From sequence record PQ306573.1: a stretch of 64,000 bases of DNA; one strand, given 5' to 3'. The position numbers and the translations under genes are program-made. The notes beneath the pieces are model-generated. The model was not told the origin of the DNA, did not search any database, and saw only the letters and a list, made by a program, of their open reading frames with translations. This DNA is from Escherichia phage vB_EcoM_PTE-Eco05. This document shows positions 10,677 through 38,063 of the stretch, in pieces; within the stretch, counting starts at the first letter, position 1; the number at the start of each line of letters is the position of its first letter.

Positions 10677-11348
10677 TTATTTAGCCCGCCCTAATATCCT
10701 TGCTGCTTGGTTGCATATTGCAGCCAAGCGTTCTTCATTTAACACATCCGACCCCTTATACCAATACATAGAAACAGTTCCAGCATATATGTTATCCAAA
10801 TTGAAGTAAGGACAACTATACATATACGCCAGTTCCGGAGTTTTTGATTTGGTAGGTAAGAAAGCAAAATCTGTTTTAGAAGTAAAGTGAAGTCCACTTA
10901 AATGGACCGAATATTCTGCTGTCGTTTTATCAACAGGAAATCCTCCCATAGATTTTTCAGTTACTGTGCTAGGTAACTTACCTTCATACGCAATAAGGTC
11001 GACGAAATAATTTAGATTTTTAGGTCTGAAAGAATACACCGAACTAAAATCCGCCCTTGATGTGACGTGGACTATTTGTAGTTGTTCTAAAGCCGCAGAT
11101 TCAAATCGTGTATTTCTTTCTTTTTGAATTACTTCTGTGTAAGTATCATATTTCGACCTCACGTAATAATCCATAAAAATATTCCCTTTGTACCATATTA
11201 GTGCCATTAGGAACAAAAGAACTACAACAGCAACTCTTGAAATAAGAATATTTCCGGAGGCGTTATCTTTGAAAATGCGGTCTAGCAACCCAAATAAAAT
11301 ATCACTAGGCGAAAATGATACTTTTGGTGCTGCCATATTACCTCCCAT
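10677..11348 (-). CDS. t: Holin (lysis-inhibition-sensing holin T)
   Basis: 223 aa; N-terminal TM segment, large periplasmic domain, C-terminus ICNQAARILGRAK as in T4 T. Confidence 0.9.
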   Translation of the reverse strand: MGGNMAAPKVSFSPSDILFGLLDRIFKDNASGNILISRVAVVVLLFLMALIWYKGNIFMDYYVRSKYDTYTEVIQKERNTRFESAALEQLQIVHVTSRADFSSVYSFRPKNLNYFVDLIAYEGKLPSTVTEKSMGGFPVDKTTAEYSVHLSGLHFTSKTDFAFLPTKSKTPELAYMYSCPYFNLDNIYAGTVSMYWYKGSDVLNEERLAAICNQAARILGRAK

Positions 11349-11355
11349 TTATCAA

Positions 11356-11363
11356 TATTTATA
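11356..11363 (-). promoter_or_regulatory. Late promoter (TATAAATA) for t
   Basis: TATAAATA on - strand upstream of t start. Confidence 0.6.
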
Positions 11364-33597: not shown

Positions 33598-33611
33598 GGG
33601 ACTTCGGTCCC
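33598..33611 (+). terminator. UUCG-tetraloop hairpin downstream of nrdB (weak U tract)
   Basis: GGGAC-TTCG-GTCCC. Confidence 0.45.
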
Positions 33612-33619
33612 ACTTTATT

Positions 33620-34030
33620 ATGAAAGATATTGCCGCCGAATATTCCTTTATTAAATATATAGAATTGGAGCTATTAGAAGATGCAACAATTAAAACAGTT
33701 GATGTCCCTAATAAGAAAAATGTCATATATGCTATTGCTATAGATGACGAACTTGTGTATATTGGTAAAACCAAGAATTTAAAGAAACGCATTAACTATT
33801 ATCGAACAGCCATAAATCGAAAAGACCAGACTTCAGATTCAAGAAAATCACTTATGATTTTGGATGCCTTAATGCAAGGCAAAAAGGTTGAATTCTGGGC
33901 CCGCCAATGTTTTGACCTTTCAGTCACCAACGAACTTGGTTCAATGACCATCGCAACAATGGACCTTGAAGAACCACTTTTTATCAAAAAGTTCAACCCG
34001 CCTTGGAATATCCAACATAAGAAAAAGTAG
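33620..34030 (+). CDS. denA: Endonuclease II (DenA), GIY-YIG-like
   Basis: 136 aa; VYIGKTKNLKKRINYY motif; T4 DenA length and position. Confidence 0.85.
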   Translation: MKDIAAEYSFIKYIELELLEDATIKTVDVPNKKNVIYAIAIDDELVYIGKTKNLKKRINYYRTAINRKDQTSDSRKSLMILDALMQGKKVEFWARQCFDLSVTNELGSMTIATMDLEEPLFIKKFNPPWNIQHKKK

Positions 34031-34059
34031 TTTACATACCACAAGGATTGTGGTACAAT
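34030..34059 (+). promoter_or_regulatory. T4-type early promoter
   Basis: GTTTAC-N18-TACAAT; inverted repeat CCACAA/TTGTGG in spacer. Confidence 0.5.
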
Positions 34060-34076: not shown

Positions 34077-35210
<1,134 letters not shown>

Positions 35211-35212
35211 TG

Positions 35213-35242
35213 GTTTACAAACACCAAGGAAGGTGTTACTAT
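35213..35242 (+). promoter_or_regulatory. T4-type early promoter
   Basis: GTTTAC-N18-TACTAT. Confidence 0.5.
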
Positions 35243-35272
35243 GGCTTTTATCAACAACATGAGGAGAAAATT

Positions 35273-35773
35273 ATGAATATGCAATTGATTACTAATGATA
35301 TGGTCGTAACCACTTTTGGAGACACAACTGACGGAATCCGGGTCTTTAAGAAAGGACGTCCAGTTGGTTATCTTACTGACCTCCGTGTTACACTGGCCAA
35401 AAATCTTAAAAAGAAAGTAAAACAAAAAGAGTATTCCACCCGATACGCTGAAGAGAAACGCGAAGCGATGCCGGAAGCAGTTAATGCCATGGTAGAATTT
35501 CTTCAAAACAATTTGACTAAATACGACGCTAATGTGTTTATTAATATTAGTCAACCAAACGTACATATCGCAGGTATAAAATTCTACATTATTTGCGACC
35601 CTCTTACCGACAAATTCAACCGCCTCGGAATTTCAAGCCCGTATCATACAGCAGAAGAGTTGTGTGTATTGTTTGAATCGTACAAAATCCAGTGTGATGG
35701 TTTGAAAACCGTTCTTATCAATGGATTATCCCGAGATGAAATCATTGAGATTATTAAAACATGCTTAAAGTAA
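35273..35773 (+). CDS. alc: Alc (host transcription unfolding/termination protein)
   Basis: 166 aa from ATG 35273 (GAGGAG RBS); position after rnlA; track ORF starts upstream at 35210. Confidence 0.7.
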   Translation: MNMQLITNDMVVTTFGDTTDGIRVFKKGRPVGYLTDLRVTLAKNLKKKVKQKEYSTRYAEEKREAMPEAVNAMVEFLQNNLTKYDANVFINISQPNVHIAGIKFYIICDPLTDKFNRLGISSPYHTAEELCVLFESYKIQCDGLKTVLINGLSRDEIIEIIKTCLK

Positions 35774-36117
35774 ATCCTATTTACGCTATAGTAGCAGCTT
35801 TTGCTCTAGTTTCTACGGTAACAATAGTTGTCTTAAACAACAAAGTTGATTCGTTGAATACTGAATTAGCTTCTGTCAAAGAGACTGCTAAAAACAATGC
35901 TAAAGTATTAGATGACTTCAAGGTTCAATATCAGTCAATCGAAGAAATGACTTATAAGAACCGTGTTTTAGTTGACCAACTTAAGGCTGAAAATGAAAAG
36001 CTCCGTAAGGATTCGAAGAAGAAGAACGTGGTGGCAAGTAAACCAGGATTGGTCGAAAAACAAATCAACAGGTCCTTCGATTCCTTTGCAGAAGACCTCA
36101 GGAAGCTCTCAGAATGA
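35761..36117 (+). CDS. Membrane-anchored coiled-coil protein (pseT.3 position)
   Basis: 118 aa; N-terminal TM helix IYAIVAAFALVSTVTIVVL then charged helical region. Confidence 0.45.
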   Translation: MLKVNPIYAIVAAFALVSTVTIVVLNNKVDSLNTELASVKETAKNNAKVLDDFKVQYQSIEEMTYKNRVLVDQLKAENEKLRKDSKKKNVVASKPGLVEKQINRSFDSFAEDLRKLSE

Positions 36118-36404
36118 TTAAATTAACCGCAGTTGTATTATCTATTGGCATTTTGGCTGGATGTGCCCAGGATGTGCTCTTAAGCCCTAAAGAAACTTTA
36201 CATCCGCCATGGCCTGAATCTATTGTTGAATATAACCAGAAATGGCAAGTAAAGGTTATTGATGGTAATCCGTGGGTTGGAATGCCATTTGAAGACTCTC
36301 AAGAATTTCGTATCTGGTTAAACGACGTAAAAAGATATGTACATGACCAGAAGACTATGTTATGTTATTATCGTAGTGGTTTAAAAGAGGAAAAATGCCA
36401 ATGA
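36114..36404 (+). CDS. Predicted lipoprotein (signal peptide with LAGC lipobox)
   Basis: 96 aa; MIKLTAVVLSIGILAGC; two further Cys. Confidence 0.5.
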   Translation: MIKLTAVVLSIGILAGCAQDVLLSPKETLHPPWPESIVEYNQKWQVKVIDGNPWVGMPFEDSQEFRIWLNDVKRYVHDQKTMLCYYRSGLKEEKCQ

Positions 36405-36619
36405 CTAAAGAACAGCATGAATACATTAAAGGGCTTATCTATGAATCTGAAATGGCGGCTATGATTTATGGACGCCAGATTCAACGATTAGAATCTTTGC
36501 CTCCGACTAATGACCGCTTGTTAGTTCAGTCTCGTGCTAATCTGAAAAATGAATATCAGAATAAGTGGGCAGTAGCGACTAAAGCTCTTCATGAGTATAT
36601 TGAATCTTTAGTAAAATAG
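36395..36619 (+). CDS. Hypothetical protein
   Basis: 74-aa ORF coupled to upstream ORF. Confidence 0.45.
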   Translation: MPMTKEQHEYIKGLIYESEMAAMIYGRQIQRLESLPPTNDRLLVQSRANLKNEYQNKWAVATKALHEYIESLVK

Positions 36620-36648
36620 TTTACAAACTCTCGGGAGCAGAGTATAAT
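36619..36648 (+). promoter_or_regulatory. T4-type early promoter
   Basis: GTTTAC-N18-TATAAT; inverted repeat GGAGCA/TGCTCC flanks -10. Confidence 0.5.
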
Positions 36649-36676: not shown

Positions 36677-36975
36677 ATGAAAACATTACTAGAGAATTAC
36701 ATCAAACGGTCTGATGAGTATATTGATATCTGCCGTGGAATGTCACTTGTAGATTATGGCAAAGATGCAGCAAAGGCACTAGATGAAGCAGGTAAAGCTC
36801 TTCGTAAAGCTGCTAAAGAAAAAGGGTTGGATTTGCAACAACTCAAAAGTCATATGATTAAATTTATTTCTTCAAACGTTAGAAGTACGTCAATTAATAA
36901 AAACGTTGCTGAAATTAATAAAGACCGGCGCGAGCATAACATTCGTATTCTTGAAACTTTCTTAGGAATAAAATA

Positions 36976-36976
<1 letters not shown>
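36677..36976 (+). CDS. Hypothetical protein
   Basis: 99-aa ORF. Confidence 0.45.

Positions 36977-38063
<1,087 letters not shown>

Follow-up and report, generated by a model that had tools for sequence, protein, structure and literature searches.

Two adjacent genes of Escherichia phage vB_EcoM_PTE-Eco05, at positions 35761 to 36117 and 36114 to 36404 of the 64,000-nucleotide stretch analyzed here (the window; record PQ306573.1), almost certainly encode the two-component spanin PseT.3/PseT.2 of an RB69-like T-even phage. The pair is already known and already annotated, and it does not represent a novel exclusion factor. We base the assignment on orthology to T4 and on the names of the matching PHROGs; this analysis supplies the evidence from orthology, protein anatomy, conservation, and genomic context, and the complementation data and the cysteine requirement are taken from the T4 literature. 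The finding offers little beyond correct annotation, the label being already in RefSeq for RB69 and many related genomes. Its lesson is a general one: where a lipoprotein gene lies directly downstream of a gene for an N-anchored coiled-coil protein, the first reading should be an i-spanin/o-spanin pair, and this applies even far from holin and endolysin genes and within an early transcription unit.

The functional evidence comes from Kongari et al. (2018), who showed that an induced lambda RzamRz1am lysogen regains lysis when supplied with T4 pseT.3 and pseT.2 on a plasmid (PMC6139136). T4 PseT.3, described as two helices with a short linker, is without cysteine, and T4 PseT.2 has two periplasmic cysteines, C87 and C98 (PMC6139136). 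The C87S and C98S variants of PseT.2 are lysis defective; both cysteines are essential and form homotypic disulfide links, and a reducible PseT.2 dimer is seen only when PseT.3 is present (PMC6139136). RB69 is listed in that study in both the T4 i-spanin family (40 members) and the T4 o-spanin family (47 members) (PMC6139136).

Genomic context

The 1-kb stretch from 35700 to 36700 matches 270 phage records, nearly all of them Escherichia or Shigella T-even phages, with DNA identities of 99.3% to phage 348Ecol098PP and 98.6% to RB69 (genus Mosigvirus). Judged by sequence, the window is that of an RB69-like T-even phage. In the RB69 RefSeq record, the counterpart genes are pseT.3 and pseT.2, each annotated as "Rz-like spanin," in the gene order nrdB-denA-rnlA-alc-pseT.3-pseT.2-pseT.1-...-pseT. 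The gene order is the same in T4 and RB69, and the 4 nucleotides (ATGA) shared by the 118-aa and 96-aa open reading frames (ORFs) on the + strand of the window have their equivalent in a 4-nt overlap between T4 pseT.3 and pseT.2. The placement of the pair between alc and pseT, made in the first-pass annotation, held: Pfam recognized both flanking genes (ALC, 4e-42, and HAD_PNKP, 2.5e-58, respectively), along with T4 RNA ligase 1. From 34086 to 36619, genes are packed or overlapping.

T4 PseT.3/PseT.2 is the paradigm of the "separated" spanin architecture, and the pair in the window has the same neighbors, with alc upstream and pseT.1 downstream. It also lies far from the holin and endolysin genes and is probably expressed early rather than late, both of which are unusual for lysis genes, but the same is true of the T4 pair. 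In several deposited genomes near-identical to the window (e.g., KP869101, KF562341, MH992122, and KY703222), both spanin genes are labeled "hypothetical protein," and in some others the lipoprotein alone is named ("Rz1") and the i-spanin carries no name. The assignment can be propagated to relatives that still bear the hypothetical label.

Features of the two proteins

The pseT.3 orthologue (35761 to 36117, + strand) encodes the 118-aa i-spanin, the inner-membrane subunit, laid out as a transmembrane domain (TMD), a first helix (alpha1), a linker, and a second helix (alpha2). The TMD comprises residues 6 to 25 (35776 to 35835, + strand; PIYAIVAAFALVSTVTIVVL), and the Kyte-Doolittle mean over 19 residues peaks at 2.56 for the segment starting at residue 7. 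Past the TMD, a single unbroken register places hydrophobic residues at 13 of the 19 a/d heptad positions, and only 0.05% of shuffles reach the 3.5-residue periodicity. In a single-sequence AlphaFold2 model (mean pLDDT of 85), helices at residues 6 to 88 and 96 to 117 are separated by a 7-residue break, and the linker joining alpha1 and alpha2 is NVVASKP; the model matches the two-helix, short-linker description of T4 PseT.3. An N-terminal membrane anchor followed by a coiled coil had been proposed for this ORF at the outset, and the TMD, the heptad periodicity, and the modeled helices all bear this out. The topology is presumably N-in/C-out. No cysteine is present.

In BLASTP, the 118-aa protein aligned with T4 PseT.3 at 48% identity (E = 3e-33), and it matched PHROG 739, "Rz-like spanin," over residues 1 to 117 (E = 1.2e-34). 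The Pfam scan returned only subthreshold coiled-coil and DUF matches for the i-spanin; we rejected these, together with a PADLOC match to PbeC (E = 0.008), as coiled-coil noise. For both proteins, searches of Pfam above cutoff, NCBIfam, and PDB sequences gave no meaningful family.

The pseT.2 orthologue (36114 to 36404, + strand) encodes a 96-aa precursor of a predicted outer-membrane lipoprotein of ~80 aa in its mature form. In the N terminus, MIKLTAVVLSIGILAGC, a short n-region containing K3 is followed by a hydrophobic core and then by the lipobox LAGC, and this signal peptide with its lipobox (36114 to 36164, + strand) can be read directly from the sequence. Cys17 (codon at 36162 to 36164) is predicted to be acylated and to begin the mature protein. 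The residue at position +2 is Ala18, and the lipoprotein therefore lacks the Asp inner-membrane retention signal. Similarity to T4 PseT.2 extends to 70% identity (BLASTP, E = 7e-52), and PHROG 812, also "Rz-like spanin," matched over residues 1 to 96 (E = 4.4e-42). The protein is 100% identical to a phage JM17 product annotated as "outer membrane lipoprotein Rz1," and the T4 PseT.2 antigen peptide WLNDVKRYVHDQKT (PMC6139136) is present in it exactly. Scans of Pfam, NCBIfam, and PADLOC gave no match for the lipoprotein.

Two periplasmic cysteines lie near the C terminus of the lipoprotein (36363 to 36398, + strand): Cys84 (36363 to 36365) and Cys95 (36396 to 36398), which correspond to C87 and C98 of T4 PseT.2 and have the same 11-residue spacing. 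Single-sequence AlphaFold2 produced a poor model of the o-spanin (pLDDT of 51), in which a disordered linker, a beta-hairpin at residues 46 to 56, a helix at residues 63 to 79, and a short strand are placed with low confidence; their order agrees loosely with the beta-alpha-beta pattern published for T4 PseT.2, an agreement to which we give no weight. The pair resembles that of T4 in having an i-spanin without cysteine, an o-spanin with a lipobox cysteine and two C-terminal cysteines 11 residues apart, and the same predicted secondary structure. The differences are those of ordinary sequence divergence only: relative to T4, the linker of the o-spanin lacks 3 residues, and divergence is seen in the TMD and alpha1 of the i-spanin.

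The likeness to lambda Rz/Rz1 is of another kind. Both systems combine a type II inner-membrane protein with a coiled-coil periplasmic domain and an outer-membrane lipoprotein, both need homotypic disulfide links, and T4 pseT.3/pseT.2 can replace Rz/Rz1 (PMC6139136). Unlike the embedded genes of lambda, however, the two genes here are separated, the disulfides are confined to the o-spanin, and the o-spanin is predicted to be beta-alpha-beta rather than an unstructured proline-rich peptide. Sequence homology to Rz/Rz1 is not detectable, and the i-spanin weakly matches a second Rz-like PHROG (214, 6e-7). Neither protein matched the Pfam models of the lambda Rz and Rz1 families (Phage_lysis and Rz1) above the gathering score. 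The relation to lambda Rz/Rz1 is one of functional analogy, homology not being demonstrable.

Conservation across phages

A tblastn search with the 96-aa protein found 1319 phage records, 1217 of which cover at least 80% of the query, with hosts ranging from Escherichia and Klebsiella to Aeromonas and Pseudomonas. We examined seven diverged relatives, namely, T4, Salmonella phage STML-198, Klebsiella phages F48 and KP15, Aeromonas phage AsSzw2, Escherichia phage vB_Eco_SAP, and Pseudomonas phage Lauda. In every one of the seven, the gene directly upstream of the lipoprotein gene encodes a protein that has a hydrophobic segment at its N terminus and then a helical region. Cys17, Cys84, and Cys95 are invariant in the lipoprotein alignment (A1; eight diverged members), and position +2, next to the lipobox cysteine, is occupied by Ala, Ser, or Thr in all eight relatives and never by Asp. 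The original call of a lipoprotein signal peptide and lipobox in the 96-aa ORF is confirmed both by the LAGC motif and by the invariance of Cys17. In the alignment of the upstream i-spanin-like proteins (A2), the N-terminal hydrophobic segment is present in 8/8, and the best-conserved part is a C-terminal motif, KPxLVEKxINxSF, which by analogy with lambda may be the segment of PseT.3 that binds the o-spanin.

The pair in Pseudomonas phage vB_PpuM-Lauda matches PHROG 739 (5e-16) and PHROG 812 (5e-18), with an overlap of 104 nt between the two genes. They lie directly 3′ of genes for an Amidase_2 endolysin and a small membrane protein and form with them a classical lysis cassette at 343 to 1911 (endolysin, 343 to 837; small membrane protein, 815 to 1135; i-spanin, 1128 to 1631; o-spanin, 1528 to 1911). 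This context is an independent pointer to lysis function. Since the Lauda pair is overlapped, the T4 spanin families appear to span both separated and overlapped arrangements. The small membrane protein of the Lauda cassette, annotated as hypothetical, is a holin candidate, and the i-spanin is not annotated as a coding sequence in the Lauda record.

Expression and proposed mechanism

The T4-type late-promoter motif TATAAATA does not occur on the + strand between 32110 and 41423, and its absence near the pair fits early expression of the lipoprotein gene. In T4 omics classes, pseT.2 has early RNA and early protein, and pseT.3 has early RNA and middle protein (PMC9697503, supplementary tables). 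The description of the lipoprotein as early expressed thus holds for the T4 orthologues, and the missing late-promoter motif is in keeping with it here. The holin gene t (10677 to 11348, − strand; PHROG 860, 4.6e-101) has TATAAATA directly upstream (11356 to 11363, − strand). As in T4, this functional partner of the spanin is ~25 kb away, on the opposite strand, and in a different temporal class.

An early-promoter-like site at 34030 to 34059 (+ strand; GTTTACA-17-TACAAT with TG), upstream of rnlA, is likely the start of an rnlA-alc-pseT.3-pseT.2-pseT.1 transcription unit. The best promoter-like site of the region, at 36619 to 36648 (+ strand; GTTTACA-17-TATAAT, 11/12 matches), falls in the 57-nt gap after pseT.1 and probably starts a separate early unit consisting of two small ORFs and pseT. 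Both sites are leads only, because promoter-like matches are no commoner in the sequence than in shuffles (18 sites found in a sigma-70-type scan versus 17.9 expected).

In the general model of spanin action, complexes build up across the periplasm, threaded through the murein mesh, and are released when endolysin removes the murein, whereupon the inner and outer membranes meet and fuse (PMC6139136). Applied to the present pair, the N-terminal TMD of PseT.3 would hold this protein in the inner membrane, with ~93 mostly helical, coiled-coil-prone residues extending into the periplasm, and PseT.2 would be processed at Cys17, acylated, and presumably sorted to the outer membrane. The two would bind through what are probably the membrane-distal parts of their periplasmic domains, forming a bridge through the peptidoglycan mesh. 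A rough length estimate (~63 helical residues of alpha1, 22 of alpha2, a lipoprotein linker of 17 residues in extended form, and a small domain) suggests that the pair can span the ~20-nm periplasm. Homotypic disulfide links through C84 and C95 would stabilize o-spanin dimers, and the complex would need such links. As long as the murein is intact, complexes, which in T4 are made from early transcripts, would accumulate harmlessly; once the murein has been degraded by the endolysin that holin T releases, they would be able to move and change conformation. To complete lysis, the freed complexes would destroy the outer membrane, with fusion to the inner membrane as the probable route. The spanin model accommodates early synthesis, since a complex restrained by intact murein stays inert until the endolysin acts.

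Alternative explanations

The function originally proposed for the lipoprotein was superinfection exclusion in the manner of T5 Llp, in which an early lipoprotein, alone or together with the membrane protein encoded upstream, would hide a receptor or keep the DNA of later phages from entering. A small, outer-membrane-directed lipoprotein whose T4 orthologues are early in both RNA and protein, and near which the late-promoter motif is missing, would suit such a role. However, the orthologous pair in T4 has a demonstrated function in lysis, and the homologous pair in Lauda sits within a lysis cassette. T5 Llp is a superinfection-exclusion lipoprotein that binds FhuA and acts alone on this receptor, whereas PseT.2 is always coupled to a periplasm-spanning inner-membrane partner, which a receptor mask would not need. 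A PDB sequence search at E ≤ 1, covering solved structures including Llp, gave only two unrelated chains, the lipoprotein is likewise without a Pfam or PADLOC match, and the gene context gives no hint of a masked receptor or of blocked DNA entry. Exclusion in T-even phages is attributed to imm and sp, genes other than pseT.2 and pseT.3. We consider an exclusion function extremely unlikely. The broader notion of a paired envelope module survives insofar as the two proteins act as an envelope pair, but their function is that of a lysis spanin and not of immunity.

It is also conceivable that a genuine spanin has an additional function before lysis, for instance in exclusion, or in lysis inhibition as a tether or stabilizer of the envelope. 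With early RNA and early or middle protein, as in the T4 orthologues, the complex would span both membranes for most of the infection, and the genes are physically apart from holin t, which has a late-promoter motif of its own. Nevertheless, nothing that we found supports such a dual role, the genes may sit in an early operon for purely historical reasons, and restraint by murein explains early synthesis well enough (PMC6139136); we regard a dual role as highly unlikely. The probability that the two are chance ORFs, or a miscalled gene that merely resembles a lipoprotein signal, is practically nil. Small size is all that speaks for it, and we rejected it on the strength of conservation, given the homologues in more than a thousand phage records, the invariant cysteines, and the strong profile matches.

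Other features of the region

The longest ORF for alc (35210 to 35773, + strand; 187 aa) has a start that overlaps the rnlA stop. The alignment to the Pfam ALC model begins only at residue 22 of this ORF, and RB69 alc is annotated with a start equivalent to 35279; translation probably begins at the ATG at 35273 or 35279. Downstream, pseT.1 and pseT are separated by two small ORFs of unknown function (36677 to 36976 and 36976 to 37167, + strand; PHROG 2364 and 8683), the counterparts of RB69ORF231c and RB69ORF230c. Neither is present in T4, whose pseT.1 abuts pseT. For the first of them, a start at 36677 looks better than the shorter reading annotated in RB69 (start equivalent to 36740), since the match to PHROG 2364 begins at residue 1 of the 99-aa product. 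Farther upstream, just past the nrdB stop codon and ahead of denA, the sequence GGGACTTCGGTCCC (33598 to 33611, + strand) forms a hairpin with a UUCG tetraloop, apparently a stable RNA structure or a terminator-like element.
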